From positions 12,968 through 76,967 of the forward strand of contig JBFMBH010000004.1 of the NCBI GenBank assembly GCA_040755095.1: DNA of 64,000 nt. Reading direction: 5' to 3'. The notes beneath the pieces were generated by a model. The model saw nothing but the letters and a program-made list of their open reading frames with translations. It was not told where the DNA came from and ran no database searches. Each line of letters begins with the position of its first letter. The first letter of the stretch is position 1. This stretch comes from Thermodesulfobacteriota bacterium (GTDB lineage Bacteria > Desulfobacterota > Desulfobulbia > Desulfobulbales > JBFMBH01). Below, one piece after another: positions 3,591-12,534 of this stretch. Made by a program: the position numbers and the translations under genes.

Positions 3591-5132
3591 ATGCCCTGGC
3601 GCCGCCTGTGCCAGGGCCTGTTCCTGGCCCTGTTCCTCTGGCTCTTCATCGAAACCGACGGCCGGGGCGAGGACCAGCTCGGCCATCCGGTGAAGCTGTT
3701 CCTGGAGCTCGACCCGCTCCTGGGCCTGGCGACCGGCCTGGCCCGCCACTCCTGGCCCCTGACCTTCTGGCCCAGCTTCGCTACCGTCGTCCTTACCATC
3801 CTCCTGGGCCGGGTCTTCTGCGGCTGGATCTGCCCTTTGGGGACCTGCCACGACTTGGTGGGCGGTTCGCCGTCCGCCGCCGAGTCGGGCCGCCGCTGGC
3901 ACTGGCTCAAATACGCACTGCTGGCCAGCCTCCTGGCCGCGGCCTTCTTTTCTGTCCAGCTGGCGGGCATCTTCGACCCCTTGTCCCTCCTGGTCCGCTC
4001 CCTGGCCCTCGGGGTGTTTCCAGCCCTGCAGGCGGCTGCTTCAGCCTTCTTCGACGCCGTCTTCCGTCTGGATCCGCCCTGCCTGGTGGACCTTTCCGAA
4101 GGCCTTTACAATTTCCTGCGCGCCCGGGTATTCGCCCTCCGGCAGCCGCTCTTCCACCAGGGCCTGTTCCTGACCCTGCTCCTGGTCCTGATCCTGGCTG
4201 CCAACCGCTACCAGCGCCGGCTCTGGTGCCGCTGCCTGTGTCCTCTGGGGGCGCTCCTCGGGCTTTTGAGCCGCTGGTCCCTCCTGCGGCGGCAGGTATC
4301 CGCGGCCTGCAGCGACTGTGGGGCCTGCACCGGGGTCTGCCCGGGCAACGCCACCGGCAGCGCTGACCAGACCGCCGAATGCCTGCGCTGCCTCCAGTGC
4401 CGGACCGTCTGCCGGCCGGGAGCAGTGGCCTTCCGCTGGCGGGGCAGCGACGGTCGCCAGGGGGTGGAGCTGGGCCGGCGGCGTCTTCTGGTGGCCGCCG
4501 CCACCGGCATGGTGGCCGCGCCTCTCCTCCCCAACGAGCCTGCCGCCCGGAAGCAGTCAGCCGCGCTGCTGCGGCCACCGGGAGCCCTGCCGGAGGAGGC
4601 CTTTGTCGACGCCTGCATCCGCTGCGGCGAATGCATGAAGGTCTGCACCACCGGCGGCCTGCAGCCGGCGCTTCTGGAGGCGGGCCTCGTGGGCCTCTGG
4701 ACCCCGGTCCTGGTGCCTCGCCTGGGATACTGCGAGCTCCGCTGCACCCTCTGTGGCCAAGTCTGCCCCACCGGCGCCATCGCCCGCCTTGATCCGGAGA
4801 AGAAAGCCCGCACCCGCATCGGCCTGGCCTTCGTGGACCGCAGCCGCTGTCTGCCCTGGTCCCAGGGCCTGCCCTGCATCGTCTGCGAGGAGGTCTGTCC
4901 CACGCCGAAAAAGGCCATCCTCCTCGCACCCGAGACGGTGACCGACGCCCTGGGCCGGCGGCAACAGGTGCAGGTACCCCGGGTGGTGGTGGAGCGGTGT
5001 GTGGGCTGCGGCATCTGCGAGGCCCGCTGCCCTCTGGCCAGCCAGCCCGCCATTGTCATCAACAACACCAACGAATCCCGCCGGTCGGAGCCGGATATCC
5101 TGCTGCCGGCCCCCGGGGACAGCATGACCTGA
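3591..5132 (+). CDS. membrane-anchored polyferredoxin (NapH/MauN-like, multiple 4Fe-4S motifs)
   Basis: The ATG at 3591 lies 2 nt after the DUF362 stop. The N-terminal part is hydrophobic, with FCGWICPLG and WCRCLCPLG motifs. Six CxxCxxC(x3)CP-type clusters follow (CSDCGACTGVCP, CIRCGECMKVC, CTLCGQVCP, CIVCEEVCP, CVGCGICEARCP and others). Confidence 0.8.
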   Translation: MPWRRLCQGLFLALFLWLFIETDGRGEDQLGHPVKLFLELDPLLGLATGLARHSWPLTFWPSFATVVLTILLGRVFCGWICPLGTCHDLVGGSPSAAESGRRWHWLKYALLASLLAAAFFSVQLAGIFDPLSLLVRSLALGVFPALQAAASAFFDAVFRLDPPCLVDLSEGLYNFLRARVFALRQPLFHQGLFLTLLLVLILAANRYQRRLWCRCLCPLGALLGLLSRWSLLRRQVSAACSDCGACTGVCPGNATGSADQTAECLRCLQCRTVCRPGAVAFRWRGSDGRQGVELGRRRLLVAAATGMVAAPLLPNEPAARKQSAALLRPPGALPEEAFVDACIRCGECMKVCTTGGLQPALLEAGLVGLWTPVLVPRLGYCELRCTLCGQVCPTGAIARLDPEKKARTRIGLAFVDRSRCLPWSQGLPCIVCEEVCPTPKKAILLAPETVTDALGRRQQVQVPRVVVERCVGCGICEARCPLASQPAIVINNTNESRRSEPDILLPAPGDSMT

Positions 5133-6875: not shown

Positions 6876-9479
6876 CTACGCCTCTTCGAACAGGAGCCGG
6901 CTGCCGTCCGGGGCCGGCAGAACCCTGATCCGGTCCCCTTCCCGGAAGCGGCCGGCCAGGATCTCCATGGCCAGGGCGTCCTGGACATGGCGCTGGATGG
7001 CCCGCTTGAGGGGCCGGGCGCCGAAGGCGGGATCGAAGCCCTTGTCGACCAGAAAGGCCTTGGCCGCCGGCGCCAGCTCCAGGCTGAATTTCTGGTCGGC
7101 CAGGCGCCTGGCCAGGAGATCCACCTGGATGTCGACGATCCGCTCGATATGCTCCCGGCCCAGGGCGTGGAAGATGATGGTCTCGTCGATCCGGTTCAGG
7201 AACTCCGGCTTGAACTGGCGGTGCAGGATGGCATGCACCGCCTGCTCCATCTCCGTCCGCCGGGCCTCTCCCAGCTCCATGATCAGCGGACTGCCCAGAT
7301 TGGAGGTCATGATCAGGATGGTGTTTTTGAAGTCCACGGTCCGTCCCTGACCGTCGGTCATGCGGCCGTCGTCCAGAATCTGCAGCAGGACGTTGAAGAC
7401 GTCCGGGTGGGCCTTCTCGATCTCATCGAAGAGAATCACGGCATAGGGTCGCCGCCGCACCGCTTCGGTGAGGTACCCCCCCTCCTCATAGCCGACGTAG
7501 CCAGGGGGGGCGCCGATCAGGCGGGCCACCGAGTGCTTCTCCATGAACTCCGACATGTCGAGCCGGATCATCGCCTGCTCGGAATCGAACAGGAAGGCGG
7601 CCAGACTCCGGGCCAGCTCGGTCTTGCCCACCCCGGTGGGCCCCAGAAAGATGAAGGAGCCCAGGGGCCGGTTGGGGTCCTGCAAGCCAGCCCGGGCCCG
7701 ACGGACGGCGTTGGCCACCGCGGCGATGGCCTCGGTCTGGCCGACCACCCGGGAGGCCAGCCGCTCCTCGGCCTGGACCAGCTTGGACTTCTCTCCTTCC
7801 AGCATGCGGTCCACCGGGATGCCCGTCCACTTGGCCACCACCGAGGCCACATCCTCCTCGTCCACCTCCTCCTTGAGCATCCGCCGGTCCTTTTGCACCG
7901 CGGCCAGCCGGGCGTTGGCCGCGGCCAGCTCCCGCTCCAGGGCACCGATGCGGCCGTAACGGATCTCTGCGACCTTGGACAGATCGCCCGCCCGCTGTGC
8001 CTGCTGCTCCTCCACCCGGGCCTCGTCCATGGCCGTCTTCTTGGCCCGGATGCTGGCGATCACCTCCCGCTCCAGGCCCCAGTGAGCCCGCATGCCGGCC
8101 AGCTGCTCCTCGATGTCTGCCAGCTCGGCCTCCAGACGGGCCAGGCGCTCCCGGGACGCGACGTCGCTCTCCTTCTTCAACGCCTCCCGCTCGATGGACA
8201 GCTTCATCCGCCGCCGCTCCTGCTCGTCGATCTCGGTGGGCATGGAGTCGATCTCGATGCGCAGGAGGGAGGCAGCCTCGTCGATGAGATCAATGGCCTT
8301 GTCCGGGAGGAAGCGGTCCGTGATGTAGCGCTGGGACAATGTGGCGGCGGCCACCGTAGCCGCGTCCTTGATGCGCACGCCGTGGTGCACCTCATACTTC
8401 TCCTTGATGCCCCGCAGGATGGCGATGGTGTCCTCCACCGTGGGCTCCCGCACCAGCACCGGCTGGAAGCGACGCTCCAGGGCCGGGTCCTTCTCGATGT
8501 GCTTGCGGTACTCGCTGAGGGTGGTGGCGCCCACGCAGTGCAGCTCGCCCCGGGCCAAGGCGGGCTTGAGCATGTTGGAGGCATCCATGGCCCCCTCGGC
8601 GGCGCCAGCCCCCACCAGGGTGTGGATCTCGTCGATGAAGAGGACGATCTGCCCCTCCTTCTTCTGGACTTCCTTGAGCACTGCCTTCAGGCGATCCTCG
8701 AACTCGCCCCGGTACTTGGCGCCGGCCACCAGGGCCCCCATGTCCAAAGCCAGCACCTGCCGGTCCCGCAGGGTTTCCGGAATATCGCCAGCCACGATCC
8801 GCTGCGCCAATCCCTCGACGATGGCCGTCTTGCCCACCCCGGGCTCGCCGATCAGGACCGGGTTGTTCTTGGTACGTCGGGACAGGACCTGGACCACCCG
8901 CCGCACCTCGTCATCCCGGCCGATCACCGGATCGAGCTTTCCCTGCCGGGCCAAGTCGGTAAGGTTGCGGGCATACTTCTCCAGCGCCTGGTACTTCTCC
9001 TCCGGGTTGGGATCCGTGACCCGCTGGCTGCCCCGCACCCCGACCAGGGCCTGTAGAAAGGCCTCACGGCTTGCGCCCTGCCCAGCCAACAGGCGGGGTA
9101 TGGCCCCGTCCTTGTCTTCCAGAAGGGCCAGAAAGAGGTGCTCCTGGCTCACGTATTCATCCTTCATCTCCCCAGCCAGCCGGAAGGCGGCGTCCATCAC
9201 CTTGCGCAGCCGGGCGGACAGATAGAGCTGGCCGGCTCCGCCACCGCTCACCCGGGGCAGACGGCCCACAAGGGCGTCCACCTCCGCCAGGAGGCGACCG
9301 ACCTCTACCCCCATGGCCTTCAAGACCGGCACCACCACCCCATCCGGCTGCTCCAGGAGCGCCCGTAGCAAATGCTCCGGCTGCAGCTCCTGATGGCCTT
9401 TGGCCTCGGCCAGGCGCTGAGCCTGGTAGACCGCCTCCTGGGACTTCATGGTCAGCTTGTCGAATTGCATACCAGACAC
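6876..9479 (-). CDS. clpB: ATP-dependent chaperone ClpB
   Basis: 867 aa with two AAA+ modules (GEPGVGKT and GPTGVGKT Walker A motifs), a long coiled-coil middle domain and a Clp N-domain. Confidence 0.97.
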
Positions 9480-9702
9480 CTCACAAGGAGAGGGCGCTTC
9501 TCGCCTGAGCAGCCGGGTGATATCCTCGGCGGCAGGACAGACATCCTGATCAGCAGGACGGAATCCTTACCAGCAGGACGGGCTGACTGCGGGAATCGGT
9601 ACGCGAGACCGCAACAGTCGTGTGAACGAGTAAGGCGGGTAACGGGGGTTGTCAAGAAAGGACGGGCAGGTCCTTGGCCTGCAACAGATGGCGGCAGGAC
9701 CC

Positions 9703-9743
9703 AAAAGACATGGGGGAGACAGGGCCCGGACCCTGCCTCCCCC
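9703..9743 (-). terminator. intrinsic terminator-like hairpin after the truncated PEP-CTERM copy
   Basis: The minus strand reads GGGGGAGGCAGGG-tccggg-CCCTGTCTCCCCC followed by AUGUCUUUUGG. It is homologous to the terminators at 10203 and 11036, but its U-run is weaker. Confidence 0.5.
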
Positions 9744-9771
9744 GGGGGTAAGAGCTGAAAAGGAGATGGTG

Positions 9772-10156
9772 CTAGCTGCGGCGACGCACGGCAATGAGCC
9801 CAAAGAGGCCGGAGCCCAGGAGCAGCACGGAGGCCGGCACCGGAACCGGGCTGGCATCGTGGATCAGGACGCCGGTGCCGGAGCTCGGCTGCCCCACAAT
9901 ATCCCAAATCTCATAGGCTTCCACGCCCGGGATCGGCACCACATCATACTGGAGGTTGGTGACCACCGACCCGCCGCTCACCATGCCGAACTTGATGCCG
10001 AACTCTGCGGTCGGCCCCAGGGAGACGGTCGTCGAGTTCGGGGTGAAGCCCATGTACCAGGTGCCACCGAGGTTGCTGAAGTTCACTGTCCGGGTCCTGG
10101 CGGTGGGGGTGATCACCCACAGGGCGCTGCCCGGATTGCCCCAGTCGTAGAAGGCC
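9772..10156 (-). pseudogene. 5'-truncated PEP-CTERM paralogue (relic of tandem copy 1)
   Basis: It encodes only the C-terminal ~128 codons homologous to copies 2 and 3 (AFYDWGNPGSALWVITPTARTRT...VPVPASVLLLGSGLFGLIAVRRRS). An in-frame TAG sits directly upstream of AFYDW. Signal peptide, leader and promoter are all missing. Confidence 0.8.
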
Positions 10157-10202
10157 TAACTAAGGAAAGTGTGTCCCGCAGCCACGCGCCGGCAAAAGGC
10201 AC

Positions 10203-10247
10203 AAAAAAATCCGGAGGCGGCAGGGCCCGGACCCTGCTGCCTCCGGA
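10203..10247 (-). terminator. rho-independent terminator of PEP-CTERM copy 2
   Basis: The minus strand reads TCCGGAGGCAGCAGGG-tccggg-CCCTGCCGCCTCCGGA followed by UUUUUUU. Confidence 0.8.
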
Positions 10248-10272
10248 TGCGAAGTCTGAAACCGGATTGGCT

Positions 10273-10845
10273 CTAGTTGCGGCGGCCGCGCACAGCAATG
10301 AGCCCAAAAAGGCCGGAGCCCAGGAGCAGCACCGAGGCCGGCACCGGAACCGGGCTGGCATCGTGGATCAGGACGCCGGTGCCGGAGCTCGGCTGACCGA
10401 CAATATCCCAGATCTCATAGAGCTCGACGCCCGGAATCGGCACGACATCATACTGATAATTGGTGACCACCGAGCCGCCGCTCACCATGCCGAACTTGAT
10501 GCCGAACTCCGGGGTGGCCCCCAAAGATACGGTCGTCGAGTTCGGGGTGAAGCCCATGTACCAGGTGCCACCGAGGTTGCTGAAGTTCACGGTCCGGGTC
10601 CTGGCGGTGGGGGTGATCACCCACAAGGCACTGCCAGGATTGCCCCAGTCATAGAAGGCCATCCTGGGGTAGGTCGCGTTCTGGGCAACCAGGTGCAGGG
10701 CGAAGGTGAACACATCGTCCTGGGTGTTGTTGAGGTCGTTGGGCTGCCAGGCGCCACCATAGGTATAGGCACTCGCCGAGCTCGGCCGCGAGGCTGCAGC
10801 CAGCAGCACCAAGGCGATCACCGCCATCCATCGCATCTTCCGCAT
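10273..10845 (-). CDS. PEP-CTERM sorting-domain secreted protein (tandem copy 2)
   Basis: An RBS GAGGAGGAAG precedes the ATG at 10845. The signal peptide is MRKMRWMAVIALVLLAAASRPSSASA. The C-terminus VPVPASVLLLGSGLFGLIAVRGRRN has the PEP-CTERM layout: motif, transmembrane helix, Arg cluster. Confidence 0.85.
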   Translation of the reverse strand: MRKMRWMAVIALVLLAAASRPSSASAYTYGGAWQPNDLNNTQDDVFTFALHLVAQNATYPRMAFYDWGNPGSALWVITPTARTRTVNFSNLGGTWYMGFTPNSTTVSLGATPEFGIKFGMVSGGSVVTNYQYDVVPIPGVELYEIWDIVGQPSSGTGVLIHDASPVPVPASVLLLGSGLFGLIAVRGRRN

Positions 10846-10973
10846 CGTCTTCCTCCTCAGATTATGTTGGACCTTCGTTGCATCGGGTTGGGGTCTGCCC
10901 AGGCAGCCCCTCGACTCCACATTCCGCGCCGATCCCGGGAACCGGCGCTACCTTTCCATTGCCCCCTCCCCGC

Positions 10974-10990
10974 TAGCAGAAACCATGCCA
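10974..10990 (-). promoter_or_regulatory. sigma-54-type -24/-12 promoter (TGGCAT-N6-CTGCT) of copy 2
   Basis: The minus strand reads TGGCATGGTTTCTGCTA, with GG and GC 12 nt apart as in the TGGCAC-N5-TTGCW consensus. It is positionally homologous to the element upstream of copy 3. Confidence 0.6.
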
Positions 10991-11035
10991 TAACCGCAAG
11001 GGAAGCGCCCCCGCAGCCACAAGCCGGCCAAGAGC

Positions 11036-11082
11036 AAAAAAAAATCCGGAAGCAGCAGGGCCCGGACCCTCCTGCCTCCGGA
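11036..11082 (-). terminator. rho-independent terminator of PEP-CTERM copy 3
   Basis: The minus strand reads TCCGGAGGCAGGAGGG-tccggg-CCCTGCTGCTTCCGGA followed by a U9 run. Confidence 0.8.
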
Positions 11083-11107
11083 TGCGAAACCTGGATCGAA
11101 ATCGACT

Positions 11108-11680
11108 CTAGTTGCGGCGGCCGCGCACGGCAATGAGCCCGAAGAGGCCGGAGCCCAGGAGCAGCACCGAGGCCGGCACTGGAACCGGGCTGGCATCGTG
11201 GATCAGGACGCCGGTGCCGGAGCTCGGCTGACCAACAATGTCCCACACCTCATAGGCTTCCACGCCCGGGATCGGCACCACATCGTACTGAAGATTGGTC
11301 ACCACGCCGCCGCCGCTCACCATGCCGAACTTGATGCCAAACTCAGCGGTCGGCCCCAGGGAGACGGTCGTCGAGTTCGGGGTGAAGCCCATGTACCAGG
11401 TGCCACCGATGTTGCTGAAGTTGACTGTCCTGGTCCTGGCGGTAGGGGTGATCACCCACAAGGCACTGCCCGGATTGCCCCAATCGTAGAAGGCCATCCT
11501 GGGGTAGCTCACGTCCTGGGCAACTAGGTGCAGGGCGAAGGTGAACACATCGTCCTGGGTGTTGTTGAGGTCATTGGGCTGCCAGGCGCCGCCGTAGGTA
11601 TAGGCGCTCGCTGGGCACGGCCGCAGGGCTGCAGCAAGCAGCACCAAGGCGATCATCGCCATCCATCGCATCTTTCGCAT
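11108..11680 (-). CDS. PEP-CTERM sorting-domain secreted protein (tandem copy 3)
   Basis: An RBS GAGGAGGAAG precedes the ATG at 11680. The signal peptide is MRKMRWMAMIALVLLAAALRPCPASA, and the C-terminal PEP-CTERM motif is the same as in copy 2. Confidence 0.85.
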   Translation of the reverse strand: MRKMRWMAMIALVLLAAALRPCPASAYTYGGAWQPNDLNNTQDDVFTFALHLVAQDVSYPRMAFYDWGNPGSALWVITPTARTRTVNFSNIGGTWYMGFTPNSTTVSLGPTAEFGIKFGMVSGGGVVTNLQYDVVPIPGVEAYEVWDIVGQPSSGTGVLIHDASPVPVPASVLLLGSGLFGLIAVRGRRN

Positions 11681-11773
11681 CGTCTTCCTCCTCAGATTAT
11701 GCAAGACCTTCGTTTCATCGCGTCCTGCCCGATCCCGGGAACCGGCAGCACTTTCCATCTGCCCATCCCAAGC

Positions 11774-11790
11774 AAGCAGGAAGTGTGCCA
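11774..11790 (-). promoter_or_regulatory. sigma-54-type -24/-12 promoter (TGGCAC-N6-CTGCT) of copy 3
   Basis: The minus strand reads TGGCACACTTCCTGCTT with GG/GC spacing as in the consensus. It lies about 95 nt upstream of the start codon. Confidence 0.65.
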
Positions 11791-11894
11791 CTCATCTGAG
11801 GATCTGACCAGGCTGCCCAGCGCCACTCAGGAGACCAGTCGTGGCATTCCAACCAGCCAACCCTGCCCGATCAGCCCACCACCAATCCGATAAG

Positions 11895-11923
11895 CCGGAA
11901 AATCCGTTCGGAAAGCCGGAAAA
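11895..11923 (-). promoter_or_regulatory. candidate enhancer (UAS): CGGAA-repeat element
   Basis: The plus strand reads CCGGAAAATCCGTTCGGAAAGCCGGAAAA, centred about 120 bp upstream of the -24 element. A near-identical core, CCGGAAnAnCCGTTCGGAAA, occurs at 30797-30831 at the same relative position upstream of another PEP-CTERM gene. Confidence 0.5.
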
Positions 11924-12012
11924 CCTCCAGGAAACCGAACAACCCGAAAAAGGCGGGACCGACCAACACGTCTCACCCCCTGCACCGACCAGGAGGCGCC
12001 CACCCGCAGGCC

Positions 12013-12056
12013 CTCCCAGAAACACCAAGGCCGGCCAGAATGGCCGGCCTTGGTGT
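12013..12056 (-). terminator. terminator-like hairpin downstream of tRNA-Pro
   Basis: The minus strand reads ACACCAAGGCCGGCC-attc-(T)GGCCGGCCTTGGTGT followed by UUCUGGG. Confidence 0.55.
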
Positions 12057-12065
12057 GAAAAACCA

Positions 12066-12142
12066 TGGTCGGGACGAGAGGATTTGAACCTCCGACTCCC
12101 TGAACCCCATTCAGGTGCGCTACCAGACTGCGCTACGTCCCG
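12066..12142 (-). tRNA. tRNA-Pro (anticodon GGG)
   Basis: The minus strand reads CGGGACGTAGCGCAGTCTGGTAGCGCACCTGAATGGGGTTCAGGGAGTCGGAGGTTCAAATCCTCTCGTCCCGACCA. It folds as a cloverleaf with anticodon loop AUGGGGU and an encoded CCA. Confidence 0.93.
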
Positions 12143-12204
12143 ACCCCATGCCCCAAAAAGGCTCAATGGTTACCATGAATAGCCGCCTCGGTCAAGGAGA
12201 AGAC

Positions 12205-12534
12205 TCACCGCTCCTCCTCCAGCAGCCGGCAGATCGCCACCAGCTCCCCCTTGATGGCGGCCAGGATATCCGAGCGCTGACTGCGGCCCCCCTTGCGGGC
12301 CTGGGCCAGGGCCTTTCTGGCGCCAGGGATGGTATATCCCTCCTCGTAGAGGAGCTCTTTGATCCTGAGGAAATTCTCCACATCCGCCCGGCGGTACAGC
12401 CGCTGCTTGGAGGCCACGCGGTTTGGTCGGATGACCGCAAACTCCGATTCCCAATAGCGGAGGACATGCGCCGCGACACCGGTGAGAGAGGCCACCTCCC
12501 CCATTCGGAAGTACTGCTTGTCAGGGATGGCCAT
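12205..12534 (-). CDS. MerR-family transcriptional regulator
   Basis: [32 protein letters not shown]...RLYRRADV is a MerR helix-turn-helix. An alternative start lies at 12573. The gene sits downstream of ihfA, as in many deltaproteobacteria. Confidence 0.8.

Follow-up and report, generated by a model that had tools for sequence, protein, structure and literature searches.

The pairing of sigma-54 promoters with genes for PEP-CTERM proteins is already known. Most PEP-CTERM genes form operons of their own and have long upstream regions, and a two-part element lies upstream of 99 of the 167 proteobacterial PEP-CTERM genes (Haft et al. 2006, PMC1569441). Motif 1 of this element is 17 nucleotides (nt) long with TTTACA at its end, and the sigma-54-dependent response regulator PrsR is predicted to bind there. 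Motif 2 is a -24/-12 sigma-54 site at a mean of 71 nt (range 23-221) before the start codon, and the spacer between the two motifs averages 63 nt (PMC1569441). In Desulfovibrio vulgaris, the DVUA0057 sites read TGTCGGA-N5-TTACA, and the DVUA0057 targets include sigma-54 promoters of PEP-CTERM genes (PMC3333781, PMC4641369). The PEP-CTERM gene pepA of Aquincola tertiaricarbonis is RpoN1-dependent, and its mapped start lies behind TGGCAC / CTGCTT (PMC9850573; Aquincola/Zoogloea). Here, we describe two predicted sigma-54 promoters in a 64,000-nt stretch of contig JBFMBH010000004.1 (hereafter the window), which belongs to a high-GC metagenome-assembled genome (MAG) of a Thermodesulfobacteriota bacterium. 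The promoters, A and B, precede two paralogous PEP-CTERM-type genes, also called A and B, of a tandem array on the minus strand.

The two -24/-12 sites

Both sites are probably functional sigma-54 promoters, and we put the probability of this reading at about 0.77. A preliminary description of the same DNA had arrived at the sigma-54 interpretation, which is well supported in silico by the present analysis. The sites, the genes that they precede, and the terminators of these genes are as follows.

11774..11792, minus strand: predicted sigma-54 (-24/-12) promoter of gene A, AGTGGCACACTTCCTGCTT; GG at 11789-11788, GC at 11777-11776
10974..10992, minus strand: predicted sigma-54 (-24/-12) promoter of gene B, TATGGCATGGTTTCTGCTA; GG at 10989-10988, GC at 10977-10976
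11108..11680, minus strand: gene A, 190 amino acids (aa); signal peptide, beta-sandwich domain, and C-terminal sorting signal of the PEP-CTERM/VPLPA type (PVPVPASVLLLGSGLFGLIAVRGRRN)
10273..10845, minus strand: gene B, paralogue of gene A, 190 codons; 93% aa and 90.8% nt identity to gene A
11035..11083, minus strand: intrinsic terminator of gene A; stem 11083-11044 (12 + 5 bp), then U9 (T-run to 11035); -32.5 kcal/mol, z -3.6; inverted repeat I1
10202..10248, minus strand: intrinsic terminator of gene B, followed by U7; -34.6 kcal/mol, z -4.0; inverted repeat I2

On the minus strand, the core of promoter A reads TGGCACACTTCCTGCT (11790-11775) and that of promoter B reads TGGCATGGTTTCTGCT (10990-10975). 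Both -24/-12 sequences were found where the preliminary description had placed them, and their GG/GC spacing is canonical, as it had also proposed, with 10 nt between the dinucleotides. Each site matches 10 of the 12 positions of the TGGCACG-N4-TTGCW consensus. The pattern TGGCAY-N6-TGCW occurs on either strand of the window only at these two sites; 0.74 matches are expected, and at least two were found in 16 of 100 shuffles. Both promoters are intergenic and in sense orientation to their genes, at 93 nt (A) and 128 nt (B) from the ATG codons at 11680 and 10845, respectively. The curated sigma-54 promoters of D. vulgaris mostly lie at positions -40 to -330 (Kazakov et al. 2015, Additional file 6). 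Based on the canonical distance from -12 to +1 (~12 nt downstream of GC), the predicted transcription starts are near 11764 for A and near 10964 for B.

The sites were scored with a weight matrix of 19 columns derived from 87 sigma-54 promoters of D. vulgaris Hildenborough (Kazakov et al. 2015, Additional file 6), and the scan covered both strands of the window (128 kb). The matrix took the place of a plain consensus count, because the latter was non-discriminating. Promoters B (22.77 bits) and A (21.05 bits) ranked first and second, so that the weight-matrix scoring suggested in the preliminary description returned exactly its two sites as the top scores of the window. The third-best match, which lies antisense within thrS, reached 14.7 bits, leaving a gap of more than 6 bits. 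In leave-one-out scoring, promoter B outscored 98% and promoter A outscored 87% of the training promoters, whose median was 17.3 bits. Matches of at least 21.05 bits are expected 0.005 times per window with an independent, identically distributed background and 0.015 times in shuffles, or ~0.3 times per 4-Mb genome. Because of their paralogy, the two sites amount to roughly one independent event, but that event is clearly non-random. Moreover, the sites fall in a small fraction of the window, being intergenic, sense-oriented, and ~100 nt from a start codon. A scan with the sigma-70 consensus detected no sigma-70-like promoter on either strand of 9400-12300. A second -24/-12-like element, GGGGCGCTTCCCTTGCG, located 22 nt upstream of promoter B, scored -5.9 bits and was rejected.

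The promoters lie at equivalent positions of a direct repeat of 62 nt without gaps (10929-10990 and 11729-11790, 71% identical) and are thus positional homologues, as the preliminary description had recognized. It had also reported that the TGGCA and CTGCT blocks are retained while the six intervening bases and the ~15 bases downstream differ almost completely, a pattern that was attributed to selection on the promoter. The blocks are indeed identical (5/5 and 5/5). The description of the divergence is qualitatively right but overstated: the intervening bases (ACTTCC versus GGTTTC) are identical at 3/6 positions, or at 2/6 if the site is divided as TGGCA/N6/CTGCT, and the downstream bases are identical at 9/15 positions without gaps. 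The argument from selection keeps its support from the core (10/10 retained) but is weaker than had been claimed, with the divergence around the core being smaller. The alignment of the two leaders contains 20 mismatches in 64 positions, none of which falls on the 10 core positions. The chance of this is 0.016, or ~0.001 when an 18-nt conserved block is set aside; ascertainment inflates both figures, the site having been chosen for its match in both copies. Comparison of gene A with gene B gives a synonymous divergence (dS) of 0.30, a nonsynonymous divergence (dN) of 0.044, and a dN/dS of 0.15. The copies are old, and both genes are under purifying selection; hence, the survival of all core bases carries some weight.

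Comparison with described systems and homologous loci

The gene class, the layout, and the promoter match the precedents, and the window promoters therefore belong to the described class. They are ordinary examples of the sigma-54/PEP-CTERM pairing, not a novelty. As in the genes with Haft motif 2, the DVUA0057 targets, and pepA, the cargo gene encodes a signal peptide and a PEP-CTERM-type tail. Genes A and B have a strong GGAGG Shine–Dalgarno sequence and an N-terminal signal peptide, and their products end in PVPVPAS-VLLLGSGLFGLIAV-RGRRN. Each is laid out as a monocistronic unit with a strong terminator after it, and, as in the class of Haft et al., more than 200 nt of non-coding DNA lies upstream (388 nt for A and 262 nt for B). 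The distances of 93 and 128 nt to the start codon are within the range of motif 2. The hexamers of copy A, TGGCAC / CTGCTT, are the same as those of the mapped pepA promoter. With the generic -24/-12 promoters (TGGCACG-N4-TTGCW; the 87 sites of D. vulgaris), the window promoters share the GG/GC spacing, and their scores are in the upper part of that set. The CTGCT variant of the -12 element is also present in DVU0036, DVU0617, DVU2107, DVU2822, DVU3143, and DVUA203 (Kazakov et al. 2015, Additional file 6).

There are also differences from the class of Haft et al. The sorting signal is a VPxP variant that scores just below the curated cut-offs of the profile models (TIGR03370, 24.7 bits with a cut-off of 25.35; PF07589, 20.6 bits with a cut-off of 20.7). 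The genes are found among housekeeping genes (pheST-ihfA-merR-tRNA-Pro ... clpB), not beside exopolysaccharide or exosortase genes. Furthermore, the window promoter is inside a tandemly duplicated unit that excludes any upstream enhancer.

The mature domain represents a family of ~180-aa PEP-CTERM proteins without a Pfam or NCBIfam model. A profile search against 1.84 billion representatives retrieved 152 proteins at E ≤0.001, most of which are 170-200 aa long with the same layout. The conserved motifs of the mature domain are YSGAW.PN, LY.YD.G, WYA, L.LG.T.EFGFYF, and YD. The gene A product is identical to a hypothetical protein of a Thermodesulfobacteriota MAG, and its sole close relative is P0002 (84% identity), which is named a PEP-CTERM protein by NCBI. 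All family loci that carry an organism name are from Desulfobacterota or Deltaproteobacteria MAGs, and several of the genes sit in PEP-CTERM gene clusters. The family is real but sparsely sampled, and the comparison of promoters across it covered about ten independent loci. A protein-pattern scan of genome and metagenome contigs with the close alignment detected no relatives, and no clear sigma-54 site was seen at the four loci from Deltaproteobacteria/Desulfobacteraceae MAGs that a scan with a wider alignment detected.

Sigma-54-type sites were found in two lineages of the family. The first is represented by locus L009, where the gene for the homologue P0070 (34% identical) is preceded by the sigma-54 site TGGCATATTAATTGCT (16.1 bits, 44 nt before the start) and by two textbook PrsR boxes, TGTCGAAATTTTTTACA and TGTCGGAATATTTTACA (28-29 bits). 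The box TGTCGGAATATTTTACA scores 29 bits and is 83 nt upstream of the sigma-54 site.

4626-4642, 4840-4856, and 4939-4957 of L009: PrsR boxes and sigma-54 site

Unlike the window locus, L009 belongs to the PEP-CTERM regulon of Haft et al. as a canonical member. The second lineage comprises L013 (60-480) and L014 (385-798), which have orthologous upstream regions with a conserved CGGCAYGCTCATTGCGATA 116 nt before the ATG. Further conserved upstream blocks contain TGTCA and TGACA, and L014 has the palindrome TGTCATTTTGACA; judging from these elements, the pair looks like a sigma-54 promoter with a different activator. Because such sites are found in two lineages and not in others, sigma-54 control recurs in the family but is not universal, which matches the observation of Haft et al. 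on PEP-CTERM genes generally. The locus adds an uncultured high-GC Thermodesulfobacteriota lineage, as well as a previously unmodelled ~180-aa PEP-CTERM family (~150 representative clusters), to the groups in which sigma-54 is linked with exosortase-sorted surface proteins. The understanding of sigma-54 or PEP-CTERM regulation is unchanged by this finding.

Upstream regions and activation of the two copies

The homology between the two copies starts exactly at TGGCA, and only 10 of the 40 nt upstream are identical, indicating that copy B inherited no upstream enhancer. The spacer between the U-run of the gene A terminator and the TGGCAT of promoter B is 44 nt, in agreement with the ~45 bp given in the preliminary description, and is homologous to the spacer upstream of copy C, a truncated third copy described below. 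The duplicated unit therefore begins at the -24 element, continues for ~44 nt after the terminator, and does not include the region upstream of promoter A. Gene B needs its own promoter because of the strong terminator after gene A. The preliminary description had remarked that copy B either lacks its own enhancer or uses a distant one. This is correct as far as can be read from the 10/40 identity and from a motif search in the two upstream regions, which detected no motif common to A and B. A candidate for the activator-binding region was found only upstream of promoter A.

11892..11951, minus strand: candidate upstream activator region of promoter A, at ~-128 to -187 from the predicted start; locally T-rich

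In this region, TTTTCCGGCTT is present at ~-130 to -160 in two exact copies 21 nt apart (11923-11913 and 11902-11892), which are its sole exact copies in the window, and TTTTTCGGGTT (11951-11941) is a third, degenerate copy. This repeat region may reasonably be regarded as a putative activator-binding region of A. A dyad search upstream of A detected none.

Here, we propose a mode of expression for the array, which consists of two intact copies and a truncated one, the truncation of which would be recent. The analysis establishes the sequence matches with their rarity and position, the terminators, the class of the genes, and the purifying selection acting on both of them; from the sequence we infer sigma-54 dependence, the start sites, and the enhancer. 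Each intact copy would be a monocistronic unit, with the sigma-54 RNA polymerase binding to the -24 TGGCAY and -12 CTGCT elements. An ATP-dependent enhancer-binding protein would then open the complex, and transcription would start ~12 nt past the GC (near 11764 and 10964), producing leaders of 84 and 119 nt, and would stop at the strong terminator of each unit. The duplication would have copied the core promoter but none of the DNA upstream of promoter A. For copy A, the TTTTCCGGCTT repeat region at ~-130 to -190 is the probable source of activation. As to copy B, the activator may act through an element inside the unit, from the copy-A enhancer ~0.9 kb away, or as an activator that needs no nearby site. 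The locus is a clean natural example of a sigma-54 core promoter that was duplicated without its upstream enhancer and is still intact, which makes the location of the activator directly testable. The mildly interesting points are how the enhancer-less copy B is activated and what role an invariant block in the leader plays.

An alternative is that only promoter A works and that promoter B is an enhancer-less by-product of the duplication, with gene B being silent or expressed by read-through from A. The start of the homology at TGGCA, the unrelated 40 nt upstream, the absence of a shared motif, the exact TTTTCCGGCTT repeats upstream of A only, and the mere 44 nt between the terminator and promoter B are all consistent with such a situation. 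We nevertheless consider it unlikely. Promoter B outscores promoter A (22.8 bits), and all of its 10 core bases survived a dS of 0.30. Gene B is intact and, with its dN/dS of 0.15, under purifying selection. Read-through should be low, since the terminator after gene A is strong (-32.5 kcal/mol, U9). In addition, sigma-54 enhancers can act remotely or from downstream: in D. vulgaris, four sigma-54 promoters are more than 300 bp from the activator site, some sites follow the promoter at 40-70 bp, and no activator site is detectable for 23 sigma-54 operons, mostly of cell-exterior genes (PMC4641369). Copy B, with a high-scoring core and no room for a conventional upstream activator site, resembles the D. 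vulgaris promoters with remote or downstream activator sites, the latter being those of the flagellar targets of DVU1063 (PMC4641369).

A slightly less likely alternative is that the elements are canonical promoters of the PrsK/PrsR regulon, where PrsR would bind to an upstream PEP-CTERM box and activate sigma-54 as in the system of Haft et al. The locus fits this regulon in gene class, in promoter type, and in its monocistronic units, and the homologue at L009 has a textbook PrsR box. Between the TTTTCCGGCTT repeats upstream of A, the stretch CGGATTTTCCG (11905-11921, minus strand) has the same sequence as the middle of palindromic PrsR sites, for example TGTCGGATTTTCCGACA. However, this stretch and the repeats lack the invariant outer TGT and ACA, and it may be a diverged activator site or a coincidence. 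Unlike in the class with Haft motif 1, a PrsR box was found neither in the interval of 32-92 nt upstream of the promoters nor elsewhere in the locus. TTTACA was absent near the locus and occurs in the window only at 4105 and 52125, and the locus has no match to TGTCGGA-N5-TTACA even when three mismatches are allowed. With a matrix made from 28 DVUA0057 sites, the best score in 10900-12100 was 5.4 bits, inside gene A, whereas the training minimum is 10.8 bits. The activator is thus probably not canonical PrsR, or its site has diverged past recognition.

Several observations weigh against the assignment of both sites as sigma-54 promoters. The plain count against TGGCACG-N4-TTGCW gave six sites at 10/12, as compared with 6.2 expected at 68% GC, and promoters A and B are not independent of each other. 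No sigma-54 site was found at most of the other family loci (L001, L002-L003, L004, L005-L008, L010-L011, L012, and L015-L017), and L011 has a good sigma-70-like promoter (TTGACT-17-TATATT). The motif search found nothing upstream of B comparable to the repeats upstream of A in addition to finding no common motif, no IHF consensus site was found nearby, and the PrsR box of the described class is missing. Unlike the setting of the generic promoters, the window has no cognate activator or rpoN gene: it contains no RpoN-box or rpoN-like open reading frame, no activator of the GAFTGA type, and no exosortase gene, nor does it contain prsK, prsR, or prsT. In favor of the assignment, the Thermodesulfobacteriota lineage is rich in sigma-54 systems, and anaerobic Deltaproteobacteria rank first in the relative number of enhancer-binding proteins. 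That the matches are not promoters but a chance fit in a 68% GC genome, inherited through the duplication, with transcription starting at another, unrecognised promoter upstream or in the leader, would agree with the unremarkable consensus count, the recurrence of the looser pattern in shuffles, the non-independence of the sites, and the other promoter types at several homologues, but is very improbable given scores far beyond the window background (a gap of more than 6 bits with 0.005-0.015 matches expected), the lack of a sigma-70-like site on either strand of 9400-12300, the fitting position, orientation, and gene-class precedent, and a core that was kept against a diverged background.

Leaders, copy C, and surroundings

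The predicted leaders of the two genes differ in length because of a 35-nt insertion in B.

11681..11764, minus strand: predicted 5' leader of gene A, ~84 nt; 18-mer GCCGGTTCCCGGGATCGG at 11746-11729, upstream open reading frame (uORF) at 11718-11692
10846..10964, minus strand: predicted 5' leader of gene B, ~119 nt; 18-mer at 10946-10929, 35-nt insertion at 10922-10888, uORF at 10883-10857

The best-conserved element of the leaders is not the promoter but the near-palindrome GCCGGTTCCCGGGATCGG, which is identical at 18/18 positions and had been overlooked in the preliminary description. It is located at ~+19 to +36 in both copies, and in our alignment, two compensating 1-nt indels hold its distance from the promoter identical. 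The final ~45 nt ahead of the ATG are also well conserved between A and B. On the sense strand, the 18-mer of either copy folds into one and the same 10-bp hairpin, with energies of -11.2 kcal/mol (z -0.5) in A and -16.6 kcal/mol (z -2.0) in B, and the antisense strand folds less well. The outer pairs show two compensatory double changes, C-G and U-A in A versus G-C and C-G in B. The only two imperfections are both G-U pairs on the sense strand, which favors an RNA hairpin. This covariation comes from two sequences and is suggestive at most. The whole leaders fold no more stably than shuffled sequences (z -1.2 and -0.25), and no match in the leaders was found in Rfam at the gathering and E-value thresholds.

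Candidate roles for the 18-mer are a hairpin in the 5' leader, an operator bound by a protein, and an activator site downstream of the promoter. It resembles the situation in the DVU1063 targets in that both copies have a perfectly conserved near-palindrome downstream of the promoter, ~46 bp from its centre; in sequence, it is unlike the TGT-N-ACA type of activator sites given for D. vulgaris. Conceivably, it might serve as a downstream activator-binding site that replaces the absent upstream enhancer, or as a leader hairpin that gates expression, so that each duplicated unit would be a self-contained sigma-54 cassette. We regard this role as doubtful; if it were true, tandem multiplication of a PEP-CTERM gene would be possible with no upstream enhancer being copied. 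Among the matches to the 18-mer in metagenome contigs (at least 120), none was listed with the promoter and leader context of the window, and they were treated as chance matches. The one inspected closely, at L053, adjoins a sigma-54-like 19-mer and was rejected, as it lies within a 521-aa open reading frame.

Two further features of the leaders were noted. The 35-nt insertion of leader B (10922-10888), which is absent from A, contains a small GGGGCUGCC...GGCAGACCCC hairpin (-16.2 kcal/mol) that is not significant relative to shuffles. Both leaders contain an eight-codon uORF, encoding MKRRSCII* in A (11718-11692) and MQRRSNII* in B (10883-10857). Its TGA stop overlaps the Shine–Dalgarno sequence of the main gene, and AGGA is present shortly ahead of the uORF ATG in A only.

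The AF2 model of the gene A product is a confident beta-sandwich (pLDDT 86) with a C-terminal helix at residues 170-189. A structure search of the PDB with this model gave nothing significant, the best hit being FlgD/LecB-like (E 0.018, TM <0.3).

The array includes the 5'-truncated copy C downstream of gene B.

9772..10155, minus strand: copy C, third copy, 5'-truncated; begins at codon 63, with an in-frame TAG just upstream

Copy C has no promoter, leader, Shine–Dalgarno sequence, or signal peptide. The sequence at its junction (...GTTAG|GCCTTC) is compatible with the loss of DNA between two ATGGC microhomologies, of which the first is at the -24 element and the second at codon 62. The dN/dS of copy C relative to A and B is only 0.06-0.07, and its copy-specific changes are distributed 1/0/7 by codon position. 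From this low ratio, either the truncation is recent, or the fragment is still constrained or has been homogenised by gene conversion.

The array is positioned between tRNA-Pro(GGG) and clpB. The neighbors are housekeeping genes, namely, thrS, infC, rplT, pheS, pheT, an IHF/HU-like gene (ihfA), and a MerR-family gene. In the 5' region of clpB (9522-9581), three tandem 19-21-nt repeats similar to CCGTCCTGCTGRTMAGGAT were observed, each of which is a mini inverted repeat of the form UCCUG-N5-CAGGA. Upstream of these repeats, at ~9625-9655 on the minus strand, there is a sigma-32-like sequence, CTTGACA ... CCCGCCTTA. The repeats and the sigma-32-like site may together constitute a heat-shock control element of clpB.

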